Positions 8,449 through 22,928 are shown, counted from the first letter of the stretch. The stretch is DNA of 37,371 nucleotides from a virus (IMGVR_UViG_2579779116_000018:1-37371), one strand, 5' to 3'. Numbers and translations: made by a program. Notes: a model not told the origin generated them from the letters alone.

Positions 8449-8727
8449 TTATTTTTGTCTGAGTAAATCGATAACTTGGTCAAATTTAGCGTCCATAGCA
8501 ACCACTTTCTTTTCTATACCGTGAAGGGTTTGTTCCATGCGATAAACTCTCTCGGCGATCTGGTCATGGTTACTTTGCATTGTTTCAAACTTCTGATTAA
8601 ACAATGCATCATTGGACTCTAATTTCGACAATCTATTTTCAGTTGCTAATTGATTTCGGTGAAGTCTCCATAATCCACCGCAAATTAAGGCGATAACACC
8701 GATACCGCCATATATAATTTCAGTCAT
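8449..8727 (-). CDS. membrane protein with N-terminal TM helix and coiled coil (92 aa), possible holin or i-spanin-like
   Basis: MTEIIYGGIGVIALICGGLW TM segment followed by a charged helical region; RBS GGGGGCGTA; follows the terminator after the tip gene. Confidence 0.5.
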   Translation of the reverse strand: MTEIIYGGIGVIALICGGLWRLHRNQLATENRLSKLESNDALFNQKFETMQSNHDQIAERVYRMEQTLHGIEKKVVAMDAKFDQVIDLLRQK

Positions 8728-8833: not shown

Positions 8834-11800
8834 TTAAGAAACAGTAATACCGGTAGTGGCTTTTTTAGTTACCATTACAGTTAAATCACTGATCCATGTG
8901 CTAGGCGTCCAGTTGTTGATTGCGCTTGATTGCACTTCAAAGGTCAAGGTCACAGCACCTTTACCCGCTGGCATATCAATAACACCTGAGTAAAGACCAG
9001 TATTACCGCCATACGCCCTATTATACAACTCTGACCCATTCTTACGAACAATAAGGCGACAGGTGTCGTAATAGGTATTATTGTTCGACCCTTCACGCGC
9101 TCGCAATCCACCAAAACTAATTGCCGGAATAACGATTTGACGATCGAACTTGTGATCATCTTCAACGCGAACAGTGACCGTACCCTGTGGATAACCAGCA
9201 TAACCAGTATCAACGTTAACATCACGATGCGGGAACTTACGTCCAATCACCTTAACGAAATCACCCTTAACCTGAGTAGCTTCGAGCATACCCTTAATAA
9301 CACAGCTAGAGTTAATCGTGACGTTGTTCAGAGTACCAGAATCAGCAGTGATATTACCTTTAACGGTTGCATTCATGAACGTAGCGGACCCGTTCTTGTT
9401 GATATGCCATCCGGTCGATCCGTTCCAGTTGGAAGACTGGATATAGTTACCGATTTTAGCGTTATCAATTGCACCGTTTACGATCTTCGCGTTAGTGATT
9501 GCCCCGTCCTGAATCTTCGCGCTGTTAATTGCAGCATTGCCGATTTTAGCCGTGGTAATCGCCGCATCATTAATCTGGGCTGTACCAATTGCAGCATTAC
9601 GAATCATCGCATTATCGAGATAAACCTTGTTACCTTCGATACCAAACGGGCATACTTCCGATCCGTTCTGTGGAGCTACCGCGATTTTATCAGCATTAAA
9701 GATGATTCTCGTCGGTTGCGCCGGATCGTTGGTTGCGCTCATGTGAATACCAGCCACGCGACCATCTGCATTAACTGCCAGATTGTATTTGCTGTTAATG
9801 GTTCCTTTCAAAGCATCGATTTTTACATCTGCTTCCTGATTCACACCAGCAATCTTGCCATCCATTTCTACCCGAACTTGATCAATCTTACTTGCGCTTG
9901 CTGCCTCACTGGTAGCAATAGCTTGTTTCAGGGTAGTAGCAGATGCGCTAACTTCTTTGGTGATATCGCCTTTCAGTTCAGCTTTAACCTGATCAATCTT
10001 AGTTGCACTGGCTTGATCACCAGAGACAATAAGACTCTTTAAGGTATCGGCTGAGGCTTGCACCGTCTGCCCTGTTTCGGTAGTGATTTGCTTATGCATT
10101 GCATCAATTTTAGCATCGGCATTAGCGCCAGCTTGAGCAATAGCATCCGCGATAGTTTCATCTAAGCGGTCTTGTAAACCAATCAGGTCTTCCAGTGCTT
10201 CTTTGTCCTGATCGTCCCAGCTAATGGTAGATTTCATTTGCATGAAATACGGTTCAGACCAAACAGCATCATCCATACCGAAAATATCGTAGTGAGCACC
10301 ACGGATATAATAATCACCGTCTGCCAAATCAAAGGAAGTATGGCTAACACTATTCGTGCTTACCGCCCTTGCATCGGAGAAAGTGTTATCGGTTGCATAC
10401 TGGATGATTGACCCTGCATAGTCATGTTCTACGTCATCCGCCCAGCTAACAAACGCAGTATTAAAGCCACCACGCGCACTAAAACCTTTCATTGGCTTAT
10501 GTTGTGGGTTGATAGCCACTAAACGCGCTGGGGCGCTCTCTGAGTTGTTATAGCCCTTAGCCGATACTTCTACCGTCAGTTGACGCGAAAGGCCGTTAAA
10601 CTGGTTCATATCAAGCGTATAAGTCCATGATTCAGGATCGCGGGTACGGTACTGAATAGACTTACCAGCCTTGTTAGTCACCTTGATAATGTATGCTTCA
10701 AACAGGTCACTAAACTTGTTAGTTTCACCGTTGATCTCAACATCTAAGCCTTGCTGGTTTTCCCATTCGATAATCAGATCATTACCTTCGAAAGTTCCTG
10801 GCGTGCTACCCTGATTTTTGATTCGAATAACCGGAGTCGGCAATTCATAGGTAACAGTCGGATTCTGGTTAATCAGTTCTACCCAATCGGATCGAGCGAT
10901 GATACCGAAAGCACAAACTCGGTAATCATAAGAGCGATCTTTAGCCAGTGCGTTGACACTGAAAATTTGCTGTGAAGTCTGTCCCAGCTTAATCCAGTTA
11001 GGCGATCCACTTACACGGTAATCAATCTGGAAACCGTAGCGGTTAAAATCTTCCGGTGCGTCCCATGTCAAAGTTACGTTTTTACCGTGGATTGTCTCAC
11101 CAGTTGCCTTAATTCTGAAATTAGTCGGTTTCTGTACTGTCATTGAATCCGGTAAACCGCTTGGTCGGTTGTCTGGGTTAGCCGCATAGTTCAGGTCAGT
11201 ATAAACCTGAGAATTATATTCTGTGGCAGTGATAGTCATCATCCCAGCAATACCAGAATCAATCGAGCGATCAATTGCAGTAATACGCCATAAGGAATTA
11301 TTCAGCTTCAATTCATCATAGGTTACGCTGATAACGTCCCAAACTTCGGCAGTGAATGCGTCAGTAGTCATAAAGCTGATAACCTGAGTGATACGAGATT
11401 TATTTCGTTCAATGCTCGCAAGTTTATCAATCTGGTCTTTAGACTTAACAAAACGATATTCAATATCTTTAGCGATAATTCGACCATCTTGACGAATAGT
11501 AGCATCGTTTTCAGCATCAGCCGGATAACGTAGCATTTGCTCTGAATAGTCGATTGATGGTTCTTGATACATCGCGTTAATGGTATTGAAATAACCGTTA
11601 GTGCCACCTGTTTTCAGTGATACCTTACCCATCATGATATTGTCTTCATTGAAGGTATGCTTAACAATATCAGGAGCATCCAGTTTCAGGGTAATACGTC
11701 CAAAGGATTCGAACATCACCCCGCCGAAAGTCTGCATAAGGCTAGTCAAGTTCTCTTTAAAGCTGGCGTTCGGATCACATGCACCGTTTGAATGTAGGTC

Positions 11801-12610
11801 CATCTGGCGTACTTGTTTACGTACTTTCAGGAATGAATCAACGTTAATGTTTTCAATTGGTACGGATAAGCCATATTTTTCATTTGTTAGGTAGTGGAAA
11901 ATCTGATCCACGCCGTTAGTGCTAGCCTCAATAGCATTGGTTTCAAGGTTACGGATTTTTAAGCCCATAACATCAACCGCTACTTGGCTATTAGGCTGGA
12001 GAATATCAACACCAGCAGCAAGAGATTTATCATCACGACGTAACACAATACACATGGTTGCAATACCATTGCCTTTGTAGTTGTCGTTCCAGTCTGATCC
12101 TAAATGACGTTTTGCCAGTGACAAAGCGGTGTTAGGATTCTTACCCGTGCGAAACTCAACTTCTAAAACTTTCCGGTATTCTTCTTTAATGTTGCCTTTG
12201 TCCAGTACACCATCACGGATCGTCATGTTCTTACCAACAAGAACATTTTTGTTATCGATAAACAGTGCTTTGTAATGGTCGATTTCACCCTCGGCAATAG
12301 CGAAGATTTGCACTAACTTATTGTTTTCTTGCTTGGAAATTGCTTTGTAAACGCAGATTGCACCTGTGCGGGTAGTACCGAAAAGAACGGGTAATACTGT
12401 CTTAGGATCGTTTGATGTTCCTAGTGTCACCGCATTATCTGGGCTTTGTACTTTCGGTGTTTTCGGTGCGCCTACAGTGGAAGCGATCAAGGTCATTGCA
12501 CCAGCAGCCATACCGATAGCGACTGCGGTCATAACAGAAAATGTTGCAGCAGCAGCCATCCCAGCAGACGCACCAGCAATAACCGCGCCTACCAATACTT
12601 CAAATCCCAT
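8834..12610 (-). CDS. tail tip / central fibre protein: gpI C-terminal-like N-terminus fused to gpJ-like host specificity protein (1258 aa)
   Basis: N-terminal Gly/Ala-rich hydrophobic region then PKTPKVQSPDN...LPVLFG resembles the C-terminal half of lambda gpI; central FN3-like repeats; AxI-type beta-helix repeats (NAAIGTAQINDAAITTAKIGNAAINSAKI); C-terminal about 150 aa (SGTLNNVTI..SC.IKG...DDHKFDRQIVIP...VIDMPAGKG) resemble the lambda J receptor-binding end. Start ATG overlaps upstream stop (TAATG). Confidence 0.85.
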   Translation of the reverse strand: MGFEVLVGAVIAGASAGMAAAATFSVMTAVAIGMAAGAMTLIASTVGAPKTPKVQSPDNAVTLGTSNDPKTVLPVLFGTTRTGAICVYKAISKQENNKLVQIFAIAEGEIDHYKALFIDNKNVLVGKNMTIRDGVLDKGNIKEEYRKVLEVEFRTGKNPNTALSLAKRHLGSDWNDNYKGNGIATMCIVLRRDDKSLAAGVDILQPNSQVAVDVMGLKIRNLETNAIEASTNGVDQIFHYLTNEKYGLSVPIENINVDSFLKVRKQVRQMDLHSNGACDPNASFKENLTSLMQTFGGVMFESFGRITLKLDAPDIVKHTFNEDNIMMGKVSLKTGGTNGYFNTINAMYQEPSIDYSEQMLRYPADAENDATIRQDGRIIAKDIEYRFVKSKDQIDKLASIERNKSRITQVISFMTTDAFTAEVWDVISVTYDELKLNNSLWRITAIDRSIDSGIAGMMTITATEYNSQVYTDLNYAANPDNRPSGLPDSMTVQKPTNFRIKATGETIHGKNVTLTWDAPEDFNRYGFQIDYRVSGSPNWIKLGQTSQQIFSVNALAKDRSYDYRVCAFGIIARSDWVELINQNPTVTYELPTPVIRIKNQGSTPGTFEGNDLIIEWENQQGLDVEINGETNKFSDLFEAYIIKVTNKAGKSIQYRTRDPESWTYTLDMNQFNGLSRQLTVEVSAKGYNNSESAPARLVAINPQHKPMKGFSARGGFNTAFVSWADDVEHDYAGSIIQYATDNTFSDARAVSTNSVSHTSFDLADGDYYIRGAHYDIFGMDDAVWSEPYFMQMKSTISWDDQDKEALEDLIGLQDRLDETIADAIAQAGANADAKIDAMHKQITTETGQTVQASADTLKSLIVSGDQASATKIDQVKAELKGDITKEVSASATTLKQAIATSEAASASKIDQVRVEMDGKIAGVNQEADVKIDALKGTINSKYNLAVNADGRVAGIHMSATNDPAQPTRIIFNADKIAVAPQNGSEVCPFGIEGNKVYLDNAMIRNAAIGTAQINDAAITTAKIGNAAINSAKIQDGAITNAKIVNGAIDNAKIGNYIQSSNWNGSTGWHINKNGSATFMNATVKGNITADSGTLNNVTINSSCVIKGMLEATQVKGDFVKVIGRKFPHRDVNVDTGYAGYPQGTVTVRVEDDHKFDRQIVIPAISFGGLRAREGSNNNTYYDTCRLIVRKNGSELYNRAYGGNTGLYSGVIDMPAGKGAVTLTFEVQSSAINNWTPSTWISDLTVMVTKKATTGITVS

Positions 12611-13029
12611 TATTCACCCCCGAATCTATAAACTTGTTCATAGTCAATGTCTGAAACAGGAATGGTCATCCAGATACCATCTTCTTCAACGAGGCCATAA
12701 CCGGAATAATGAGGAACTACGGAATAATAATTACGGTTTCCTAATTTGTGGGCTGTGACCAGTAAGTCGCCGTCCTGTAAATCATCAGTGACTAATTTGA
12801 AATGTTTCTTAATTGGTTGAAGGATATTTGAATACCCGCTTAATTCTTTGCAGATTTTCAAGCCTTCTTCTTTAGTTGAATATTTTTTATAAAGAGAATT
12901 ATATAGGTCAGTACCAGCGAGAATATCGATGATCTTACATGCAATTAGATTGCAATCATTCTCACCCTGAACGAACTCCTGACCTATTAAAGAATTGATG
13001 TAATCGGTGATAAGCCTAGTTTTTAGCAT
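12610..13029 (-). CDS. putative tail tip assembly protein with NlpC/P60-like Cys/His motif (gpK-like), about 139 aa
   Basis: Position between minor tail genes and the J-like gene; ENDCNLIACKI Cys motif and downstream His residues; start placed at internal ATG 13027-13029 with RBS GGAGGT. Family call is tentative. Confidence 0.5.
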   Translation of the reverse strand: MLKTRLITDYINSLIGQEFVQGENDCNLIACKIIDILAGTDLYNSLYKKYSTKEEGLKICKELSGYSNILQPIKKHFKLVTDDLQDGDLLVTAHKLGNRNYYSVVPHYSGYGLVEEDGIWMTIPVSDIDYEQVYRFGGE

Positions 13030-13075
13030 GTTGAATACCTCCATGCTGTTATTTACTAGGCTTAGGGAGAAGGGA

Positions 13076-13846
13076 TTATTTCTTGAAGTCTTCGTACATT
13101 CTACGAAGGTTGTATTTTGGATGGCCTAAGCTAACCATGATTTGACTCAATTTAACCGCGCCGGGTTTACCGTTTTCAATCCACACGCGCCGGATTTCAT
13201 CGTAATGCTGCCAACAGCCTTGACCTTTAGCAATACGTATAGAATGTGTATATTTCTTGGTAGAGCTTTCTGGTCGCTTGCGCCCTAGATGTGCTTTTCT
13301 AATCTTTTCGCGTGTTTCTTCTGATACAGGTTTACCATAACGGGGGTTATTCTCTCCACGAGTAGCAGCCGATAATTTAGCTAATATTTCTGGGTTTGTT
13401 ACTTTTTTGCCTCTCATTGCACTAGGTTTACCATAGCGATGGTTCTTTTCACCCATTCGAGATGCCGACATTTTAGCTCTAGATTCCGGTGTATGTTTTC
13501 TTCCGTAAAAAGGATGATTTTCACCACCATCAAAACCACCGACACCACCAGGAGCTATATTAAGACATACACCACGCCCCCATTTTTCGCGTGCTGCCTC
13601 CACTAACAGGATTTCACATTCAAACGCTTCCTCGGCAGTATCAAACAATTTTGAACGAACAACTTCAAATTCATATATCGGGGTTTCTGATTCTTTATTT
13701 TTACGCTTCATCATTTTAATAACTTTACCCGATCCCACATATCCATCGTCTAGATTTGTGGTTGTTCTTTTTCCGACGTAATGATAGATTTTACCAGAGC
13801 GATTAGATTTAATAGTGGTGTGATAAACGTAATGGAATTTTTGCAT
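13076..13846 (-). CDS. GIY-YIG homing endonuclease with NUMOD3-type repeats (256 aa)
   Basis: N-terminal HYVYHTT...SGKIYHYVGK...GYVGSG (GIY-YIG module) and three copies of N-x-P-x-Y-G-K/R-x-x-S/T-x-E-T/S-R-x-K-I/M (NUMOD3-like DNA-binding repeats); own RBS; inserted between minor tail genes. Confidence 0.85.
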   Translation of the reverse strand: MQKFHYVYHTTIKSNRSGKIYHYVGKRTTTNLDDGYVGSGKVIKMMKRKNKESETPIYEFEVVRSKLFDTAEEAFECEILLVEAAREKWGRGVCLNIAPGGVGGFDGGENHPFYGRKHTPESRAKMSASRMGEKNHRYGKPSAMRGKKVTNPEILAKLSAATRGENNPRYGKPVSEETREKIRKAHLGRKRPESSTKKYTHSIRIAKGQGCWQHYDEIRRVWIENGKPGAVKLSQIMVSLGHPKYNLRRMYEDFKK

Positions 13847-13920: not shown

Positions 13921-14574
13921 TTATTTTTTAGACGAGTGCCAGCGGCTTTCGCTATTCCACTTCCCGGCACGAGAGAAGAATAGATCATTCTCGTTTCCGG
14001 CATAGGATCGGTGGATACCATCGGAGGCATGACTACGAGCGTTTTTATCTAGAACTTCCCAGATACTATTAAGCTGAAATTCCGATTCGTTTTTACACTC
14101 ATCATCTTCATGTTCGATGTTAATACCGATGGAATCGACCACCCCACGGAAAACAGGGTAAGTAGTTTCAACCTTGCCCGTGTTAGGGTTCAGGAACACC
14201 ATTTCGATTTTTACATCAGATTTATCGAATTGCTTGTTTCGAATCAGGGTAATGTATTCCTCGCGAACGTTAGAAACGGTTACGTTAATCCCGTTGTTGT
14301 TGATCTCCTTCTCTTCGGTATTCGATGAGATTTGAAGAAAATCACCCGTTGCGAGATACGTAAATCCGTTATAGTCCAAATCGAAATACCCATCTGTAAG
14401 CCGTAGAACGTCCCCTGACGCGGTTACTACTTCGATAATGTGAAACATCGATCCAGTGGAGAAAAGCTGCGGTAGCGTCAATCTAGACACGTTCTGACCT
14501 GTCTGGTCGTTGTAGACCTCGATGAAGTCCAGATTAGTGCATAGTTTGCTGAATGATTCCTGAATAGTTGCCAT
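13921..14574 (-). CDS. minor tail protein (217 aa)
   Basis: Start at internal ATG 14572-14574 overlapping upstream stop (TAATG coupling); syntenic with lambda L/M-type minor tail genes downstream of the tape measure gene. Confidence 0.55.
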   Translation of the reverse strand: MATIQESFSKLCTNLDFIEVYNDQTGQNVSRLTLPQLFSTGSMFHIIEVVTASGDVLRLTDGYFDLDYNGFTYLATGDFLQISSNTEEKEINNNGINVTVSNVREEYITLIRNKQFDKSDVKIEMVFLNPNTGKVETTYPVFRGVVDSIGINIEHEDDECKNESEFQLNSIWEVLDKNARSHASDGIHRSYAGNENDLFFSRAGKWNSESRWHSSKK

Positions 14575-15134
14575 TATACATTCTCCACTAATTCGAATTT
14601 CATCTTGCCAATCTGGGCGATCTTCCAATCGATATTTTCAGTTTTGAGAACAAATTCGCCTTCTACGTTCTGATACTTGATCACCTCACCAGCCAGGACG
14701 TTTTGACGCAAGTTAGGGAAGAGTTTCATTTCACCACCTGATTTCACGTCTTCGGTGATCGTGTAGATTTTCTTGTGGTTCTCAAACTGGATGACAGTTC
14801 CCGCTTTCAGTGTTCCGGTGAAGTTGGAGAGTCTCACCTTACGCCCACCGCGAGCAGTACCAGCAGCAGCCGTTACCATCTGGCGTACATCACCTGTATA
14901 TTTTGAAAAGTAAGACAGTGGCACACTGAAAGGACGACCAAAAAGGTGACGTGCTACAAATTCTTTTACTTCGTTAATATCCTGAGCCATGAAATTCGCG
15001 GTAAATTCTGCTTCGTAAAAATGGATGCCAGTAAAGCGACGCTGGAACTTACCGGAGATAGATTGCGCCTTGAAGAAAGGTTGTTTTGATTTAAGAGTAA
15101 AATCTGTGATTTTAATATTCTTTGATTTGAACAT
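14574..15134 (-). CDS. minor tail protein (186 aa)
   Basis: First gene after the tape measure gene; its SD (GGGGG) lies in the 3' arm of a hairpin (15141-15179). Confidence 0.55.
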   Translation of the reverse strand: MFKSKNIKITDFTLKSKQPFFKAQSISGKFQRRFTGIHFYEAEFTANFMAQDINEVKEFVARHLFGRPFSVPLSYFSKYTGDVRQMVTAAAGTARGGRKVRLSNFTGTLKAGTVIQFENHKKIYTITEDVKSGGEMKLFPNLRQNVLAGEVIKYQNVEGEFVLKTENIDWKIAQIGKMKFELVENV

Positions 15135-15185: not shown

Positions 15186-17540
15186 TTACATCTTACGACG
15201 CTGTGCGTCTTCTACCGCCTGAGCAACTAACTTAGCGTGACGTTTGATAGCATCCATAACCATCTTGTCTGAGCTATTAACATTGCCGTTAATGTTCAAA
15301 GGTGCGTTAACTTCAATCGGCTGAGAGTTACCACCACCTGATTTTTGAGCAGCAAGGAAGTCTTTCAAATCACCGTTAGTACGCTGATCAACTACTCGTT
15401 CACCCTTATCAAGCAACCATGTACCCTCACGAGGGATGTTATCAATACCATCATGAGCCATACCGCTAACGTTAGTAGACTTGATGTTTGCGATGCTCCC
15501 CATGTTCTGAGAAACAGCCAATGCAGCAGCAGCGATTTTTTGACCTGTGGTTACGTTGGTCGGATCGTTCCATGCTTCGGTAGCAGCCGTCCACATGTTC
15601 ACCGTCGCTTGTCCAATGGAGAATGCCTTATGAGCATTGAAAGCCATCTGCATAGCTTTAGTGTTTTCCTGCCCGAAGAGAGTCATTGCAGCAGCAAAAC
15701 CGCCATACATATCATCGGCTATTGACTGGCGAGCATCAGCATATTTCTTTTCAATTGCAGCCATCCGTTTTTGATGGTTTTCATTGAGTTTTTCTAATGC
15801 AGCCATCCGTTTAGCTGGATCATTAATACCATCAATATTGAGTTTTTCGGTCTTATAATCTTGTTCAGCTTCCGATTTCTCTTGATCGATTGCATTAAAT
15901 TTAGCAAACGGGTTATTTGAATCCTGATAGTCTAAGCTATTAGTCAATTGATTGGTTTTAAAACCATCCATTCCCTGTAACTGACTATCAATCTGAGAAT
16001 AGTTTTGCTCGGTATCATTCACACGACGCATATATTCTTCGTAGGAGATAGCTTTACCATCAAGTAACCGTTTATGGCTTTCTAGCTCGTTGTCCCTGAT
16101 TTGTTGCAAAACTGTTAAGGCATTCAGAGCATCAATCGGATCAGCACCCAACATCATTTTATAGATGTTTTCTGCGTTCTGATCTAACAGTTGCTGACGT
16201 TTAGCGGCTGCGTCTTGCTGAGAGATTAAGCCCATATCTAAAGCAGTGTCTAAATCTTTCAAGCTGGCTTCTAACTGCTTGTTTTGAGAAGCAATAGACG
16301 CGGCTGTCTGTCCTTGCAATTTAACATCAAGAGCATTCAGTCGCTTGATTGCATCCTCGCGTGCTTTCTGTGCTTTTTCTGCGGCTTCCTTAGCCTTTTT
16401 AGCTGCCTCTTCCGCTTTCTTCTTGGCTTCTTCTTGTTCTTTTTTCGATGGTCCGGTGACGCCTCCACCTTGACCCGTTGGGGTAAATCCGGTATCCGAT
16501 TTATTTCCAGTGATAGTAATTACCGGATCACCGTTTTTATCACGGGTAACGCCTTCACTATCCACCCAACGATCAGGATAATTTGGTTTATTGTTGAAGC
16601 TGGCTTGTCCACCCGCTAGACCAGTAGAACTATAACCATGCTTGTTAATAAAACCACCGTTAGCCATAGCCATATTCTGGCGAGCTTTTTCAAACCTTTC
16701 ATTAAAAGTCTTTAATGCGTTGAATAAAGCGGTCTTTTCCCAATCTTTATCAAACCAGTTGTAAAGATTATTCATCCCTTCAACAACTGGATTTAGTGCA
16801 TTTGCAGCCATACCCTTTAAGTTATCGGTAAGGGTATCCATATTTTTAGAGAATTTATTATATTCTTCGGCTGTGTCATTGGTGATTTTAACAGTTTGCT
16901 GATTAATGGCGTTTACAGCTTCCTGATAAGATCCGTATTTCTGCAATTCATCAGCCATATGACTTGAATCACTGGCTAACGATTCCATCATAAACTTAAC
17001 ATCAGCGATAGACGCACCAGCCTTGCGCATATCATAGAAGACCTTGATCGCCGCTTTCATCCCGCCTTGTGGATCGTTCATAAACTCGGCATAATCTTTA
17101 ATCTTCAAACCTACACTTTCTAGGTCGTCTTCAATACCGCCACCGTTACGCCATGCATCAGCCAGCTTATCTAAGGTGTCTTTGTTAATATCACCAAATT
17201 TCTCAACGGTTAAGCCAGTACCGGAGAATTGCTTCTCTAATTTCTGGAGTGTTTCGACGGTTAAACCAGTTGCTTTTGAAACTTCGCTGTATTCCTTTAC
17301 ATAATCACCGATGGCATTTGCAGCAGAAATAGCGCCAGCAGCCAAACCAACAAAACCACCAGCAGCCAAAGCAAGCGATCCACCAGTTCCGCGAAGGGTT
17401 CCACTTAAACTAGATAAACCACCAGACAAATCAAGATTCATTGCCCTTTCTGAAAGGTTATCAAGCATCTCTATCGCCTGATTGGTACTTCTCCTTAGAC
17501 CGTCATTATCTCCTTCTATTGTTACTATATGTCTTGTCAT
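15186..17540 (-). CDS. tail tape measure protein (784 aa)
   Basis: Long alpha-helical protein with Gly/Ala-rich N-terminal region and Lys/Glu/Ala coiled-coil segment, directly downstream of the G/T chaperone pair; RBS GGGGTAATTT. Confidence 0.85.
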   Translation of the reverse strand: MTRHIVTIEGDNDGLRRSTNQAIEMLDNLSERAMNLDLSGGLSSLSGTLRGTGGSLALAAGGFVGLAAGAISAANAIGDYVKEYSEVSKATGLTVETLQKLEKQFSGTGLTVEKFGDINKDTLDKLADAWRNGGGIEDDLESVGLKIKDYAEFMNDPQGGMKAAIKVFYDMRKAGASIADVKFMMESLASDSSHMADELQKYGSYQEAVNAINQQTVKITNDTAEEYNKFSKNMDTLTDNLKGMAANALNPVVEGMNNLYNWFDKDWEKTALFNALKTFNERFEKARQNMAMANGGFINKHGYSSTGLAGGQASFNNKPNYPDRWVDSEGVTRDKNGDPVITITGNKSDTGFTPTGQGGGVTGPSKKEQEEAKKKAEEAAKKAKEAAEKAQKAREDAIKRLNALDVKLQGQTAASIASQNKQLEASLKDLDTALDMGLISQQDAAAKRQQLLDQNAENIYKMMLGADPIDALNALTVLQQIRDNELESHKRLLDGKAISYEEYMRRVNDTEQNYSQIDSQLQGMDGFKTNQLTNSLDYQDSNNPFAKFNAIDQEKSEAEQDYKTEKLNIDGINDPAKRMAALEKLNENHQKRMAAIEKKYADARQSIADDMYGGFAAAMTLFGQENTKAMQMAFNAHKAFSIGQATVNMWTAATEAWNDPTNVTTGQKIAAAALAVSQNMGSIANIKSTNVSGMAHDGIDNIPREGTWLLDKGERVVDQRTNGDLKDFLAAQKSGGGNSQPIEVNAPLNINGNVNSSDKMVMDAIKRHAKLVAQAVEDAQRRKM

Positions 17541-18280: not shown

Positions 18281-18787
18281 TTAAGAGATTTTCAAAGTCT
18301 GCTTAGTGCCAGTCTTCTTAATGTTATTGAGGAAAGCAGCCGGAGGATTGCTTAACCAATAGTAATGAAAACCGCTTTGCATACTGTTATAAGGAACAGT
18401 GACAGCAGCACCACCCAAATTAACGGTTATATTCCCCGCTCTACCGTTCTGGAGATATACAGCCATAGTAGGAGTACCGCCATTGAATTGACCAACGATA
18501 ACGCCAACCAGATGGCCTACGCCCACGTTTTCGGGGTTCTCCATAGATCCTTTACCGCGCATGTCAGTTACTGGATAGTTTGAAGCAGTTACACCCCAGT
18601 TATTACCCAATGAAGTAGACCATGCAGCAGTAGCAACAACCGTATCCATACCACGACCAGCCATTGCCGACATATTACGCGGAGCCGGAACTTTTAAAGC
18701 TGTTAATGCTTCTTTCATCCATCGCTTACCCGTCACTGATACAGCCGATGACCCGATCCAGCCGGGAACTTTAACGACATTTGCCAT
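18281..18787 (-). CDS. hypothetical structural protein (168 aa)
   Basis: Gly-rich protein between the tail tube candidate and the chaperones; RBS GGAG; function unknown. Confidence 0.55.
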   Translation of the reverse strand: MANVVKVPGWIGSSAVSVTGKRWMKEALTALKVPAPRNMSAMAGRGMDTVVATAAWSTSLGNNWGVTASNYPVTDMRGKGSMENPENVGVGHLVGVIVGQFNGGTPTMAVYLQNGRAGNITVNLGGAAVTVPYNSMQSGFHYYWLSNPPAAFLNNIKKTGTKQTLKIS

Positions 18788-19478: not shown

Positions 19479-22400
19479 TTATTTAGTTGCTTTGAGTTCG
19501 GCTAATTCAGCTTTCGTTTCGGCAAGTTCTTTAGCCATAGCATCAAACTTAGCGCTCATTTCCTGAAACGCCTTAATTAAAAGAGCGTTGACAGCAGAGT
19601 TAGAAATTGTTAAGATCTCTTCTGGCTTATCAGGATCGCCGATCTTAGAAGTTGTTACTGCTTCCGGCAATTCTTTTTCAAGATCCTGAGCAATAATACC
19701 AACTTCATGAGCGATAACAGTGCGGTCCGTCAAAGACTTAACCTTATCGTAGGTGTACACAGTCAAGCGATTAACTTTATCGGTGGCATTCTCCTTATAC
19801 TCTTCCTTGTTGATTTTCAGACGAGCATCAGAACGAATATAAACATCGTTAAAGTTACCATTGCGTCCAGCTTGGAAATCACCGGAGGCGTTAAAGTCAA
19901 AGTTTGTGGTATGGATATGAAGACGTGCCATAGCATTAGTAATAACACCACTAGGAACGTGTACACCCATTGCCGCGATGTGGTCTAAACCCCATTTGGT
20001 CGCTTTCCATACGTTATATGCGGAAGTTTGAGCATTAGGACAATCAACCAATAAGCCAGCAGCGCGAGTTTTCCATTCTGACCATGCACCACCTTGTACT
20101 TCTCCGCGAATCAAACCACGGTCGCTACCGTTTGCATACCCACGTTCTAAGCGAATCATACCAGTCTGGAAAACATGGTCAAATTCTCCGCTGTTATAGT
20201 TTCGAATGCGCATTTGACCTGAGCCATCACCCCAGATAACACCACGGTTAGTACCATTAGCATCCTTAAACCAGAGTTCTTTATTACCATCTCTATACAT
20301 CTGAATTTGGTTATTGGTACGCAAAACATTAGTAACCACCAAATCACCATTTATCCGAGCACGACCACCCGTTTCTAAACTACCAGCAACTCTGAATTGA
20401 ATCGAACCGTTAGAATCACGCTGAGAATATAGATGATAGCTTGTTTCGTCAGCAAGTTCCCACACCTGAGCGCGAGTTTCATTACCCCAAGATTTAACAA
20501 AGAATACAGATTTCGATCCTTCGTCGTTACGTTCCCAATACAGTCTGCTTCCAAGATGTGTGGTTGCGTTCACTTCAACTCGTTTACGTTCGTTGTTGAG
20601 ACGCATTAAATGATTACCAGCATCGCTACCACCTAGTGTAACGTTACCATTGGCTAGGCTATAGATGAACGGCCTAAAGGTATTCCACGGACCCATAGTG
20701 TCGCCTGATTTTGTGCTCATCAGATAAACGTTACTACCGTCATTTCGCCACCATGAACCATAGTTACCATATACAGTACGGAAGCCATCAGCATATAAAG
20801 AAATGAATTGACCGTTAGTATAAACTCGCTTCATATTGCCAGTTTGAAGTTCTATCTGGCCGTCAATATGTTGACGAATAGAACTACCGCCTACATCACT
20901 ATACCATTCAAAAACGTTAGTATCAGCATTGGCATAACCGATCCATCCTTGACGAGTAATATCTCCAGTACGATTATCTTGAAACGCAATATGGTTGGAT
21001 TGACCAGCAGGTCGGCGTAGTGTAATGGCATTAGATCCGCCATTTAACAGCATACGACCAGAAATAATATTACCTTTATGAGTCCCAGCAATAGAGCTAC
21101 TAGATTCAACGGTTAGAATATCCTGAGCATCAGTGGCACCAGTAGCCAGACGATAGCTGGCACCTTGAACAGTCTCATGCCAGATCATTTCATTATAGTT
21201 ACTACGGAATTTACGAATATATTTCCGTCCAGTACCTCTATCATTGCTTAGATGAACAATGTCATAGCTGTTTTGTGTATTGTCGTCAAAACTCAACACA
21301 CCACGTTTATTTTCGGTGTTGAAAAGAGTTACGTTGCGACCACCGATAACACCAACGGAAGGTTTAATTAACGTGGCTTCCGGCGTATCATAAACCGTCA
21401 AACTTACATAAACAGATTTCCCATATTCGACAATAACGTTATCGGTATAACGCTGATATTTCACGTAGATATCATAGTTATCACCGGAAGTATTGACAGC
21501 AAATACCTCAAAATCTTTGTTTGTATTTCTACGGTATGCAATTACGTTAAGACCTTTAGGTCTATCGTTACCACTACGCAGAAGAATTTCTACTACGTCA
21601 ACCTGATCATATGCCGTAACGCTGTAACCATTACCACCATGAATACGGAAAAACACACTACGCCCGTTTTGTGGAATTGTTGCGGTTGCCAATTTGAAAT
21701 ATGCAGATACGTTTTCGCTAGAATTAGGAACAGACATAACGACGTTTTTAACAAACATCTTATCAACTTCTGCTTTAGTGTATGCACCAATCTCGCCAGG
21801 AGTCGGCTTATCACCTTCGTGATACATCTTATAGCTAAAGTTCTTCTGTCCTTCTCTATCAAAACCATAGGTTTCAACACGAGATCCACCAGACGCATAA
21901 CGGAAAGTAAATCCGCGACCGTGCGCTTTACCGGCAGAATGAGGAACGTTAAGGGTCAGATCCATGAGTCCATCTTGTCCATTGGTACGGAAAGCACCAA
22001 AGTAGTTAAGATCTCGCGCTGTCTGATCTTCCAGATAGTTAGCTGTCTTGCTTAACAAATACCCGCCATGCTTAGTATTGGTATTCTTCTTGATGTAAGC
22101 AGCATCGGCACTACCTTCAATAGAATCAATTCGCTGGTTAGCTGCGGCAATTGCGGCATCAGTAGAAGATTTATTCTGGTCTACCTTGTTGTTAATAGCG
22201 GTATGGTTGCTGTTAACAGTGCCAGTAAGGTTACTGATTTTAGTATCAGCATCTTTCTTGTTGTCGGAAACGACCTTTTCAATCGCTGTTTTGTTAGCTG
22301 CAACCGTGCTAGTTAAGCTAGAAATTTTGTTATCTGCATCGGTTTTATTTGCAGTAACAGTTTTAGTTAAGTTGCTAACGTTGGTGTTAGTGGTATTAAC

Positions 22401-22928
22401 TTTGTTGTTAATCGCGGTGTTATTGTCATTAACCGTCGTGGTTAAAGCTGCGATTTTATTGTCCGCATCTCGTTTATTATTTGCTACAGTAGTTTCTATA
22501 GCTGATTTGTTAGATGCAACTGTCCCTGTAAGGTTATTGATCTTAGTATCAGCATCGGTTTTATTTGCCGTGACTGTCTGGGTTAAGTTACTAACCGTGG
22601 TGTTAGTAGCATCAATGCGCTTATTGGTCGCTGTATCTTTCGTGGTAATAGTCTGATTCAGTTCAGCTTTAGCACTAGCCAGATTATTAGCGGCTTCTTG
22701 TTTGTTGGAAGCAATAACACGGTCAGTGCTAGTTTTGTTATTGTCTACTTTCGTATTCAGTTCAGCGTGTTTTTCTGGAGAAACACTAATTTGGACTACG
22801 TTATTATTTTTGTCTTTGGTGTAAATCACATGATCCGCCAACTGTAAGGCGATTTCACCCTGTGATAATTGTTCCGGCGTTGGTTTTTTACCAGCCGTTT
22901 GTGTGCGTTTAAATTGGATTGATTGCAT
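19479..22928 (-). CDS. fibre protein with C-terminal intramolecular chaperone (peptidase S74) domain (1149 aa)
   Basis: C-terminus SDARLKINKEEY...VIAHEVGIIAQDLEKELPEAV...LLIKAFQEM matches the auto-cleaving chaperone domain of T5 L-shaped fibre / endosialidase type; N-terminal third is Thr/Asn-rich tandem repeats; KPTPGEIGAYTKAEVD motif. Confidence 0.85.
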   Translation of the reverse strand: MQSIQFKRTQTAGKKPTPEQLSQGEIALQLADHVIYTKDKNNNVVQISVSPEKHAELNTKVDNNKTSTDRVIASNKQEAANNLASAKAELNQTITTKDTATNKRIDATNTTVSNLTQTVTANKTDADTKINNLTGTVASNKSAIETTVANNKRDADNKIAALTTTVNDNNTAINNKVNTTNTNVSNLTKTVTANKTDADNKISSLTSTVAANKTAIEKVVSDNKKDADTKISNLTGTVNSNHTAINNKVDQNKSSTDAAIAAANQRIDSIEGSADAAYIKKNTNTKHGGYLLSKTANYLEDQTARDLNYFGAFRTNGQDGLMDLTLNVPHSAGKAHGRGFTFRYASGGSRVETYGFDREGQKNFSYKMYHEGDKPTPGEIGAYTKAEVDKMFVKNVVMSVPNSSENVSAYFKLATATIPQNGRSVFFRIHGGNGYSVTAYDQVDVVEILLRSGNDRPKGLNVIAYRRNTNKDFEVFAVNTSGDNYDIYVKYQRYTDNVIVEYGKSVYVSLTVYDTPEATLIKPSVGVIGGRNVTLFNTENKRGVLSFDDNTQNSYDIVHLSNDRGTGRKYIRKFRSNYNEMIWHETVQGASYRLATGATDAQDILTVESSSSIAGTHKGNIISGRMLLNGGSNAITLRRPAGQSNHIAFQDNRTGDITRQGWIGYANADTNVFEWYSDVGGSSIRQHIDGQIELQTGNMKRVYTNGQFISLYADGFRTVYGNYGSWWRNDGSNVYLMSTKSGDTMGPWNTFRPFIYSLANGNVTLGGSDAGNHLMRLNNERKRVEVNATTHLGSRLYWERNDEGSKSVFFVKSWGNETRAQVWELADETSYHLYSQRDSNGSIQFRVAGSLETGGRARINGDLVVTNVLRTNNQIQMYRDGNKELWFKDANGTNRGVIWGDGSGQMRIRNYNSGEFDHVFQTGMIRLERGYANGSDRGLIRGEVQGGAWSEWKTRAAGLLVDCPNAQTSAYNVWKATKWGLDHIAAMGVHVPSGVITNAMARLHIHTTNFDFNASGDFQAGRNGNFNDVYIRSDARLKINKEEYKENATDKVNRLTVYTYDKVKSLTDRTVIAHEVGIIAQDLEKELPEAVTTSKIGDPDKPEEILTISNSAVNALLIKAFQEMSAKFDAMAKELAETKAELAELKATK
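22070..22720 (-). repeat. in-frame tandem coding repeats within the fibre gene
   Basis: Protein-level repeats of the type TVTANKTDADTKI(N/S)NLTGTV..N.TAIN(N)KV recur several times; nucleotide repeats visible. Approximate bounds. Confidence 0.6.

Follow-up and report, generated by a model that had tools for sequence, protein, structure and literature searches.

On its minus strand, the window, that is the whole stretch of 37,371 nucleotides analysed, carries a tail-tip module that includes a gene for a protein of 1258 residues (Table 1). The start ATG of this gene overlaps the TAA stop of the gene upstream (TAATG) and is preceded by a Shine-Dalgarno-like run (GGGGGTGA). The product, designated 'phage tail tip protein' by PGAP, is the large subunit of the siphovirus tail-tip (baseplate hub) complex of a prophage of ~35 kb, a common one in E. 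coli, and 57 complete genomes of this species, out of 5426, carry the region. From its N-terminus onwards, the chain consists of a hydrophobic segment, gpI-like plug and strands, a pb3-like hub, FN3-like repeats, a putative helical shaft, a fibre of the lambda J type and an Ig-like receptor-binding domain.

Table 1. Features of the tail-tip module, with positions counted from the first nucleotide of the window
Feature	Position	Strand	Basis
Lambda-J-type Ig-like receptor-binding domain, aa 1123-1258	8837..9244	-	Pfam Ig_GpJ_C, E 1.4e-34
Central straight fibre (Phage_Tail_Tip, PF09327), aa 931-1122	9245..9820	-	Pfam, E 4e-18
Putative alpha-helical shaft, aa 797-945	9776..10222	-	Composition and position
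Fibronectin-type-III-like repeats, aa ~485-795	10226..11158	-	Pfam fn3 (sub-threshold), profile
Hub domains HDII-HDIV, aa 97-480, starting with the AIAEGEID motif	11171..12322	-	AF2 model, Foldseek
Polar linker APKTPKVQSPDN, then beta-strand segment VLPVLFGTTRTGAICVY, aa 46-102	12305..12475	-	gpI homology
Gly/Ala-rich hydrophobic stretch with two predicted membrane-spanning segments, aa 1-45	12476..12610	-	Kyte-Doolittle
Large tip protein (tail tip/baseplate hub and central fibre), 1258 aa	8834..12610	-	ORF
DUF6950 protein at the lambda K position, 144 aa	12610..13044	-	Pfam DUF6950
GIY-YIG/NUMOD3 homing endonuclease, inserted within the tip module	13076..13846	-	Pfam NUMOD3, E 1e-20; PHROG homing endonuclease, E 4e-32
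Small hub protein, 217 aa (from the ATG used by PGAP in the homologue)	13921..14574	-	Pfam and PHROG
Distal tail protein, 186 aa	14574..15134	-	PHROG distal tail protein, E 2e-16
Tape measure protein, 784 aa	15186..17540	-	Size and position upstream of the distal tail protein

Among the neighbouring genes, the homing endonuclease, which was found in 4 of 30 related loci, has no part in the tail machine. The small hub protein matches the Pfam family Phage_phiJL001_Gp84_N ('baseplate hub protein, N-terminal attachment domain', PF09931, E 1e-5) as well as a PHROG tail protein (E 2e-27), and it is this protein that supplies the HDI/attachment domain, comparable to lambda gpL and RcGTA g13. Counted from the start given in Table 1, it contains only two cysteines and thus lacks the four-Cys Fe-S site, unlike the RcGTA hub. 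The distal tail protein shows a weak match to T5 pb9, and the C-terminal stretch of the tape measure protein closely resembles that of the protein of 804 aa encoded at the equivalent place in phage DCP80. The tail module of the window contains no separate I-like ORF, and the tail-module ORFs scanned gave no match to Lambda_tail_I (ubiquitin-like) or Prok-JAB, with lambda gpI and gpK being recovered in the same scans; in contrast to lambda, the tail module thus lacks both the ubiquitin-like N-domain of gpI (PF06805) and the JAB domain of gpK.

The first-pass annotation had proposed that the N-terminus of the tip protein resembles the C-terminal half of lambda gpI, and that its C-terminus resembles the receptor-binding segment of lambda J. 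Both resemblances were borne out by pairwise alignment. For the N-terminus, BLASTP aligned aa 8-106 with gpI 120-222 (27 % identity, E 4e-5). The hydrophobic stretch of the tip protein exceeds a Kyte-Doolittle value of 1.6 (19-residue windows) at centres 10-15 and 23-39, as gpI likewise does at 110-115 and 139-147, and AF2 places helices at 5-12 and 27-40 with low confidence, as is its confidence over the whole of aa 1-59. Aligned alone with gpI, aa 1-45 scored no better than shuffled sequence (z 0), and their likeness to gpI, as far as can be judged from sequence, is one of composition and hydropathy only. This stretch is the counterpart of gpI helices H1 and H2 and of the RcGTA iris/penetration helix.

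Residues 46-102 are, on the strength of sequence comparison, homologous to gpI 155-218, which comprises the plug and beta strands. In a Smith-Waterman shuffle test, aa 46-110 aligned with gpI at z 9.6-10.6 (Gumbel p ~1e-6), a score reached by 0 of 3000 shuffles, and hhalign comparison of a tip-family profile built from 86 sequences with a gpI-family profile returned a probability of 94.5 % (E 7.6e-8), pairing aa 62-102 with gpI 178-218. When a profile of 32 N-termini was searched against 177,635 PDB sequences, gpI was found at E 5e-6 (spanning gpI 110-213), together with T5 pb3 (263-313, E 1.6e-8), the F2-pyocin tail assembly protein (E 1.4e-3) and RcGTA g15 (residues 8-140, E 7e-3), and beyond these four no PDB sequence matched at E <1. 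In the AF2 model, strands at 75-91 reach a pLDDT of ~90 and belong to the region that is modelled with confidence. Moreover, hydrophobic stretch, linker and LPVxYGxxRxG motif follow one another in the same order in the tip protein and in gpI (PDB 8iyk, 8xcg), where hydrophobic helices, an APK..TP..Q..DN linker and VLPVLYGxxRVG strands occupy residues 110-218. The tip N-terminus thus contains the TAPI-C module (Gly-rich hydrophobic helices, plug linker and LPVLYGxxRVG strands). A single-sequence phmmer search of the tip protein against the PDB recovered the gpI likeness marginally (E 0.026), and PF06805 (Lambda_tail_I) gave no match in the tip N-terminus up to E 10 in a scan that found lambda gpI at E 1e-28; this model spans only the ubiquitin-like beta-grasp domain (gpI 14-97), and Pfam holds no model for the C-terminal part of gpI.

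The hub that follows was modelled by AF2 with a pLDDT of 80, and Foldseek placed this model nearest to pb3 of T5/DT57C (PDB 7zhj, 8hqz; TM 0.70, rmsd 3.6-4.0 A), followed by RcGTA g15 (0.60) and, at a distant 0.55, lambda J. Searched against the PDB, the family profile matched T5 pb3 at E 2e-72 (profile positions 74-695 matching pb3 263-943) and lambda J at E 2e-35, so that sequence and predicted fold both point to pb3 as the closest relative of the hub, nearer than lambda J. The AIAEGEID motif can be paired by eye with AISEGPIEG of lambda J (J aa ~22-37), a pairing that alone is not significant (p 0.04); in T5 pb3, the corresponding IPVVYG...AEGEID motif (from 263) comes directly after the plug hairpin (pb3 230-238). 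The tip protein has the pb3-type HDII-HDIV fold followed by FN3 domains. In contrast to pb3, which holds HDI in the same chain, its alignment begins at pb3 263, and HDI (PF09931) is encoded by the separate gene for the small hub protein. The two also differ in the plug, a beta-hairpin in pb3 and hydrophobic helices in the window protein, and in T5 the receptor binder pb5 resides on a separate fibre protein, pb4.

Beyond the hub, Pfam fn3 was detected below its cut-off at aa 506-570, and positions 483-627 of the family profile matched FN3 domains of titin and fibronectin. Lambda J likewise continues from the start of its hub into FN3 repeats, a fibre and an Ig-like receptor-binding domain. Residues 797-945 form, by composition and position, a putative alpha-helical shaft, located where lambda J has one (PMC11101478); the entropy profile of the family places an indel hot spot within it, at aa 841-900. 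Missing from lambda J are five repeats of 10 residues in the fibre (aa 1005-1055, window 9446..9598), this repeat region adding ~60 residues relative to lambda. The corresponding BLASTP alignment, of aa 949-1257 with J 872-1131 (32 % identity, E 5e-36), has a gap over aa 1005-1064. Ig_GpJ_C and PF09327 both exceeded their gathering scores; besides these two, Pfam returned only a weak Phage-tail_3 match and the sub-cut-off fn3. No RcGTA-type peripheral or fibre-binding domain was therefore seen in the tip protein by Pfam, and in contrast to the RcGTA megatron it carries a lambda-type central fibre and receptor-binding domain instead. While the last ~190 residues are the lambda-J receptor-binding end, full-length equivalence to lambda J was not found, NCBIfam lambda_TipJ (NF049904) scoring 208 bits against a curated cut-off of 1950 and matching only aa 1068-1258.

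Across 86 clusters (50 % identity), the large tip protein as a rule bears a hydrophobic/plug module at its N-terminus, as the window protein does, and five cultured phages, DCP80, the Vibrio phages henriette and V6Aob, DSL-LC06 and the Pelagibacter phage HTVC112P, carry the module fused, with no separate I gene. These five share with the window the order distal tail protein, hub, small enzyme and large tip protein, which is likewise the g12-g15 order of RcGTA and of roseophage R4C (PDB 6tba/6teh, 8gtc). TAPI-TAPJ fusions in some prophages, as well as K proteins that have NlpC/P60 only and no JAB domain, were recorded in 2006 by Iyer, Burroughs and Aravind (PMC1779556); the window resembles these in its I-J fusion and in the lack of a JAB domain at the K position, and differs in that TAPI was defined there by the ubiquitin-like domain, whereas the window protein has the TAPI-C part only. 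The layout with a plug in the hub is already known from phage T5 and from gene transfer agents.

These comparisons bear on the reading initially given to the locus, a lambda tail module rearranged by fusion of the I and J genes and directed at LamB or a maltoporin-type receptor. The difference in organization from lambda holds: one chain joins the gpI-C-like module to a J-like hub, fibre and receptor end, the gpI function residing covalently in the hub protein where lambda uses two chains, the I gene is missing, and the gene at the K position lacks a JAB domain. The rearrangement itself finds no support. Since T5 pb3, and not lambda J, is the closer relative of the hub, the gene order recurs in the five phages and in RcGTA, and the fused module is general across a large and diverse family, the tip module is best not read as a rearranged lambda, and the low lambda_TipJ score argues in the same direction. 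Even with gpI-like and J-like segments in one chain, and with a receptor-binding domain family whose founding member binds LamB, as do J ends known from other phages (bioRxiv 10.64898/2026.04.02.716166), we consider this reading in its entirety unlikely.

As to its receptor part, the best solved PDB match of the receptor-binding end is gpJ-A8 (9wca, E 4e-54; lambda J, E 2e-36), and the last 135 residues are 53 % identical to gpJ-A8 and 43 % to lambda J, with the J proteins of E. coli O157 prophages at 57-58 %. The gpJ-A8 and gpJ-1A2 chimeras carry the natural J ends of OmpC-using E. coli prophages (PMC11338833; PDB 9wca), and A8 delivered DNA into lamB-deleted cells via OmpC (PMC11338833). NNWTP and SISDL segments are common to the tip protein and these relatives and differ in lambda J. 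The loop segments differ from lambda J by indels and, compared with gpJ-A8/gpJ-1A2, vary by substitutions and indels. Indels and hypervariable positions of this domain share the same short segments, which are putative receptor-contacting loops. A maltoporin-type receptor is therefore not what these comparisons favour, and LamB is not the best-supported candidate. A trimeric porin can reasonably be proposed, but the sequence does not reveal which one; an OmpC-like porin would be the best guess, with LamB and OmpF remaining candidates, and any assignment is weak owing to the 53 % identity and the divergent loops. In related prophages, the receptor-binding domain falls into discrete allele classes, Salmonella and other relatives diverge abruptly past aa ~1050-1100, and the domain is exchanged as a swappable cassette. 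The prophage also encodes a second likely adhesion system, made up of a side fibre of 1149 aa and a protein with a Gp38_N domain, and for this reason the J-type domain may not be its sole specificity determinant.

The gene immediately upstream was described as NlpC/P60-like, an assignment that stands at the level of a motif. Its product, which has 139 aa when counted from Met6, the start used in the NCBI PGAP annotation, and the length given in the first-pass annotation, belongs to DUF6950 (PF22262; 47.1 bits, E 3e-12, gathering cut-off 27 bits), in agreement with its PGAP name. Four homologues all conserve Cys31, Asp93 and His99, and hhalign found a weak local alignment of the catalytic-Cys motif with lambda K (E 0.028, probability 1.8 %). 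In contrast to lambda K (E 3e-13), the protein gave no match to NLPC_P60 (PF00877) up to E 5, and it showed no BLAST similarity to lambda K, no significant match of its profile in the PDB and no JAB domain; its single-sequence AF2 model was unusable (pLDDT 38). As judged from these searches, an NlpC/P60 relationship has support at the level of the motif, and as a DUF6950 member the protein differs from RcGTA g14, an annotated NlpC/P60 peptidase.

A putative Cys/His enzyme translationally coupled to the tip gene, together with the proposal that gpK peptidase domains process gpI (Iyer et al., PMC1779556), invites the alternative that the tip fusion is cleaved after its gpI-like part, e.g. by the DUF6950 protein, leaving the virion with a separate gpI-like peptide as in lambda. 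We regard this as very unlikely, as the RcGTA and R4C structures model the N-terminal helix within an intact megatron (PMC7296036, PMC10276861), the gpI-like strands are confidently predicted by AF2 and run on into the hub domains, a cleavage motif was not found, and some relatives carry an acyltransferase rather than a peptidase at the enzyme position. That the gpI resemblance merely reflects chance or the composition of Gly/Ala-rich hydrophobic segments, the N-terminus being a membrane anchor or signal-like and unrelated to gpI, is highly improbable: while the shuffled-sequence result for aa 1-45, the marginal phmmer score and the lack of a Pfam model are in keeping with it, the signal that reaches significance comes from beyond the hydrophobic part (z ~10, hhalign 94.5 %), the profile matched tail-tip proteins exclusively, and the three elements are collinear in both proteins.

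Taken together, these results suggest a model for the pb3-like fused tip protein in which every mechanistic step is drawn by analogy. Three copies would form a closed cone at the tail end, with the three N-termini situated in the tip lumen and closing the channel beneath the C-terminus of the tape measure protein, which would rest on the plug, judging by the solved tips of lambda, T5 and RcGTA. As plug and membrane inserter, the N-terminus presumably acts as gpI does, and in RcGTA g15 the channel is likewise closed by a hydrophobic 'iris/penetration' domain at the N-terminus. Binding of the receptor-binding trimer to a trimeric outer-membrane porin would trigger a conformational change running up the fibre, upon which the hub domains would swing outward and release the plug, and the hydrophobic helices may then enter the outer membrane, providing a path for the tape measure protein and DNA. 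How the gpI helices and plug act, and likewise the plug of T5 and the iris of RcGTA, has been described (PMC11101478, PMC10721106, bioRxiv 10.1101/2022.09.20.507954, PMC7296036); that the gpI helices and the megatron N-terminus insert into the membrane is only proposed in these studies. Overall, the tip of this E. coli prophage is probably a pb3-like hub with a fused gpI-C plug and an exchangeable J-type binder, working in the manner of the lambda, T5 and RcGTA tips.

The tip protein is encoded at the distal end of a tail module that belongs to a ~35 kb E. coli prophage with a serine recombinase, in the order tape measure, distal tail, small hub, homing endonuclease, DUF6950 and tip genes, the last two of which end the module. 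These two genes are translationally coupled, as the tip ATG overlaps the upstream TAA and is preceded by the SD-like run GGGGGTGA. The 4.2-kb region that they occupy is present in 57 of 5426 complete E. coli genomes (~1%), where PGAP names the products 'phage tail tip protein' and 'DUF6950 family protein', and gave no megablast match among 50,697 phage records; the nearest cultured relative is Escherichia phage DCP80 (39% protein identity), and none is close. The domain order of the tip protein, its homologies and the exchange of its receptor-binding cassette are directly observed, and we consider it likely that it is a tail-tip hub protein combining a gpI-like module, a T5-pb3-like hub and an exchangeable lambda-J-type receptor end.

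Features of the tail module and of the corresponding enzyme slot in distant relatives (coordinates refer to the window unless a locus is named)
Feature	Coordinates	Strand	Remarks
92-aa ORF	8449..8727	-	N-terminal hydrophobic segment and coiled-coil-like tail; directly 3' of tip gene
Tip protein, 1258 aa	8834..12610	-	ORF
Receptor-binding end	8837..9250		aa ~1120-1258; discrete allele classes
AAIxxAKIxx repeats	9446..9598		aa 1005-1055; five tandem 10-residue units in the central fibre, within ~60 residues absent from lambda J
DUF6950 protein, 144 aa	12610..13044	-	139 aa if begun at Met6 (start chosen by NCBI PGAP)
GIY-YIG/NUMOD3 homing endonuclease	13076..13846	-	inserted between hub and DUF6950 genes
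Small hub protein	13921..14574	-	'baseplate hub N-terminal attachment domain'
Distal tail protein	14574..15134	-
Tape measure protein	15186..17540	-
168-aa ORF	18281..18787	-	N-terminal domain of T-even tail-fibre adhesin Gp38, E 4e-15
1149-aa ORF	19479..22928	-	Gp34 trimerisation domain and Peptidase_S74 intramolecular chaperone domain
GNAT acetyltransferase	L034:4474-4959		enzyme slot of phage DSL-LC06; E 2e-9
HlyC-type RTX-toxin acyltransferase	L036:3624-4010		enzyme slot of Pelagibacter phage HTVC112P; E 3e-16

The family profile aligned with the T5 hub protein pb3 (profile 74-695 with pb3 263-943, E 2e-72) and with lambda J at just E 2e-35. Using the AlphaFold model of tip aa 1-480 (mean pLDDT 80; residues 1-59 below 50, gpI-like strands 75-91 ~90), Foldseek likewise returned T5/DT57C pb3 as the best match (TM 0.70), followed by phage Chi, g15 of the gene transfer agent RcGTA (0.60) and lambda J (0.55). 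A search with tip aa 1-200 against 1.84 billion representative proteins yielded 86 clusters, in nearly all of which the match begins by residue ~40 of a protein 700-2300 aa long, and the four-gene layout without a separate I gene is found in Escherichia phage DCP80, Vibrio phages henriette and V6Aob, DSL-LC06 and Pelagibacter phage HTVC112P. Fusion is thus the norm across a broad family; TAPI-TAPJ fusions and K proteins without JAB were already recorded by Iyer et al. (PMC1779556). Lambda differs in having a split I gene with an added ubiquitin-like domain and a partner gpK with a JAB domain, neither of which was found in the tail module of the window. The hub chains break at different points: T5 carries L, I and J in one chain, the window family separates L from a fused I-J, and lambda has all three apart; RcGTA is half-fused like the window family, and T1 and F-pyocin are split like lambda. 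As for the small hub protein, it contains two Cys only (counting from the PGAP-type start) and therefore lacks the four-Cys iron-sulfur site reported for lambda gpL and the RcGTA and roseophage R4C hub proteins; it had no match among PDB sequences.

The first-pass annotation had read the tip protein as a product of rearranged lambda tip genes that would engage a LamB-type receptor. Given a hub nearer to pb3 than to lambda J and a fusion that is usual in the family, the rearrangement is not supported, and, with the receptor comparison described below, we regard this combined reading as unlikely.

Its assignment of the C-terminus to the lambda J receptor-binding segment was, however, borne out: Pfam Ig_GpJ_C covers the last 136 residues (E 1.4e-34), and the last ~310 residues are 32% identical to lambda J, with an alignment gap of ~60 residues opposite the repeat-bearing segment. 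The 50-aa repeat block is 78% identical to that of DCP80, most of the tip protein being at 22-56%. Among 31 family members, the Ig_GpJ_C-type domain occurs in the window protein only, and DCP80, the Salmonella relatives and the database protein P0247 are collinear with it to aa ~1050-1100 and unrelated beyond. Within the E. coli prophage family (loci L003-L032), the last 138 aa sort into distinct classes (about 99, 81-83 and 60-65% identity) that are uncoupled from the N-terminus, which holds at 92-100%; the variability lies in four short receptor-domain segments and in an indel-rich shaft stretch (9911..10090, aa 841-900). This pattern marks the receptor-binding end as a cassette obtained from lambdoid phages.

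Among solved sequences, the one nearest to this end is gpJ-A8 (PDB 9wca; E 4e-54), a lambda J chimera with a natural prophage J end that delivers DNA into lamB-deleted cells in an OmpC-dependent manner (PMC11338833; bioRxiv 10.1101/2025.02.28.640725). Over the last 135 aa, the window protein is 53% identical to gpJ-A8, 57-58% to J of VT1-Sakai and 640R1-type prophages, and 43% to lambda J, which is itself 41-43% identical to each of them. A maltoporin receptor is hence not favoured; a trimeric porin can sensibly be predicted, and OmpC would be slightly preferred over LamB. In lambda, LamB is contacted by four bottom loops of the J receptor-binding domain (PMC11101478). The segments carrying indels between window, A8 and lambda coincide with the hypervariable segments of the family (aa 1128-1141, 1167-1182, 1201-1202 and 1227-1229), and we infer that these are the contact loops.

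At the other end of the protein, the proposed likeness to the C-terminal half of gpI proved well founded. BLASTP aligned tip aa 8-106 with lambda gpI 120-222 (27% identity, E 4e-5), and a profile of the 86 family N-termini matched the gpI-family profile in hhalign (probability 94.5%, E 7.6e-8; aa 62-102 with gpI 178-218). A profile built from 32 sequences and covering the first 125 residues, run against all 177,635 PDB sequences, retrieved T5/DT57C pb3 263-313 (E 1.6e-8), lambda gpI 110-213 (E 5e-6), an F2-pyocin tail assembly protein (102-191, E 1.4e-3) and RcGTA g15 (8-140, E 7e-3), and nothing else at E < 1. Two hydrophobic segments precede the conserved part in both the tip protein and gpI. 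Pfam and NCBIfam scans could not address this resemblance, because the Lambda_tail_I model spans the ubiquitin-like domain alone (gpI 14-97); word-indexed searching for homologues of the N-terminal 140 aa found fragments of near-identical proteins only, and the matches listed for lambda gpI 100-223 were all stand-alone gpI proteins, with no direct link to fused forms. Taken together, we regard the gpI-like N-terminus as real at the sequence level. That post-translational cleavage yields a separate gpI-like peptide seems improbable. A compositional artefact, for which one might cite the Gly/Ala-rich aa 1-45 (z 0 against gpI in the shuffle test), is very hard to credit, as the signal resides outside that stretch, in aa 46-110 (z ~10, Gumbel p ~1e-6).

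Directly after the gpI-like part lies KLVQIFAIAEGEIDHYKALFIDNKNVL, which by eye matches lambda J ~22-50 (LLSVIDAISEGPIEG...); the order would therefore be collinear, with the gpI C-terminal half followed by J minus its first ~20 residues. Tip aa 91-200 compared with the lambda J N-terminus alone gave no significant similarity (p 0.04), and the junction rests on the by-eye motif together with the fold match.

In lambda, gpI 101-223 occupies the tail-tip lumen and consists of a pair of predicted transmembrane helices, a plug (159-175) obstructing the channel beneath the C-terminus of the tape measure protein, and beta strands that pass between the gpJ hub domains; once LamB is bound, the plug becomes loose and the helices vanish in the direction of the membrane (PMC11101478; PMC10721106). 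In T5, the pb3 plug hairpin (230-238) shuts the cone and, after a change of fold, becomes anchored in the outer membrane (bioRxiv 10.1101/2022.09.20.507954), and the motif common to pb3 and the window protein starts at pb3 263, immediately after this hairpin. In the RcGTA and R4C 'megatrons', as their large hub proteins are called, a hydrophobic 'iris/penetration' domain at the N-terminus shuts the channel, and a role as a pore in the outer membrane has been proposed for it (PMC7296036; PMC10276861). From these parallels, the first ~100 tip residues are the same module, placed N-terminally on a large hub protein, and the comparison shows at the sequence level a single module, shared by the gpI C-terminal half, the pb3-plug surroundings, the iris/penetration domain and the window N-terminus, with different hub break points. 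By analogy with the lambda, T5 and RcGTA structures, this N-terminus would reside in the tail-tip lumen, be released on receptor binding and then insert into the membrane. Many database entries for the tip protein are 1211-1249 aa long (P0023, P0032, P0033, P0046-P0048, P0075-P0099). Start calls at internal methionines, which trim the hydrophobic gpI-like N-terminus, would explain some of these lengths; others have the full N-terminus and lack ~40 shaft residues instead (aa ~851-900). In the window, the full 1258-aa start is favoured by the SD-like run and the stop/start overlap.

The protein encoded upstream matches DUF6950 (E 3e-12), a name with no mention in the literature searched. Describing it as carrying an NlpC/P60-like motif was fair wording, given residues invariant in four homologues (Gly27, Asp30-Cys31-Asn32, Gly92-Asp93, His99) and a Cys motif that aligns weakly with the segment around the catalytic Cys of lambda K (E 0.028; lambda K against the DUF6950 model, E 0.067); it is at most a putative member of that family, with neither an NLPC_P60 match nor BLAST similarity to lambda K. 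The single-sequence AlphaFold model (pLDDT 38) was unusable for fold, and the profile gave non-significant GNAT matches only in the PDB (E 0.9). The gene between the small hub and large tip genes encodes DUF6950 in the window, DCP80, henriette and V6Aob. Common ancestry of DUF6950 with the GNAT and HlyC-type proteins holding this position in DSL-LC06 and HTVC112P was rejected, since hhalign detected no relationship. The NlpC/P60 superfamily includes Cys-His acyltransferases. Because GNAT and HlyC-type enzymes hold the same position in distant relatives, it is conceivable, although we think it a long shot, that the small enzyme covalently modifies the penetration N-terminus, e.g. by RTX-toxin-like acylation, rather than digesting the cell wall; in that case, the tail plugs of phages would need lipidation to enter the outer membrane.

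The homing endonuclease gene is present in four of 30 related loci (L020, L022, L030 and L031), is missing from E. coli PSJ-22, and is therefore a sporadic mobile insertion in the tail-tip operon. From the Gp38_N-type and 1149-aa ORFs, the prophage probably has side fibres bearing their own adhesin besides the J-type tip. DCP80 has a 153-aa ORF comparable to the 92-aa ORF and in the same place 3' of the tip gene. Its record (PQ671644) is labelled Straboviridae / Tevenvirinae / Gaprivervirus and contains a siphovirus-type module (tape measure, distal tail, hub, tip) homologous to that of the window; the label looks wrong.

Overall, current understanding is not overturned by these results. Modestly new are the explicit sequence-level link between the gpI C-terminus, the region after the pb3 plug and the megatron N-terminus, and the description of a prophage family, common in E. 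coli though uncultured, in which a T5/GTA-like hub is combined with lambda-J-type receptor binders that can be exchanged. Identification of the module helps annotators of the tip protein, because the start of several database entries seems to have been called at an internal Met, which would cut off their hydrophobic N-terminus. For work on lambda, it provides a natural I-J fusion without the ubiquitin-like/JAB pair, useful for asking what purpose that pair serves. The family itself holds at least three exchangeable J-type receptor-binding alleles, adding natural J ends for the retargeting of lambda-based delivery particles.
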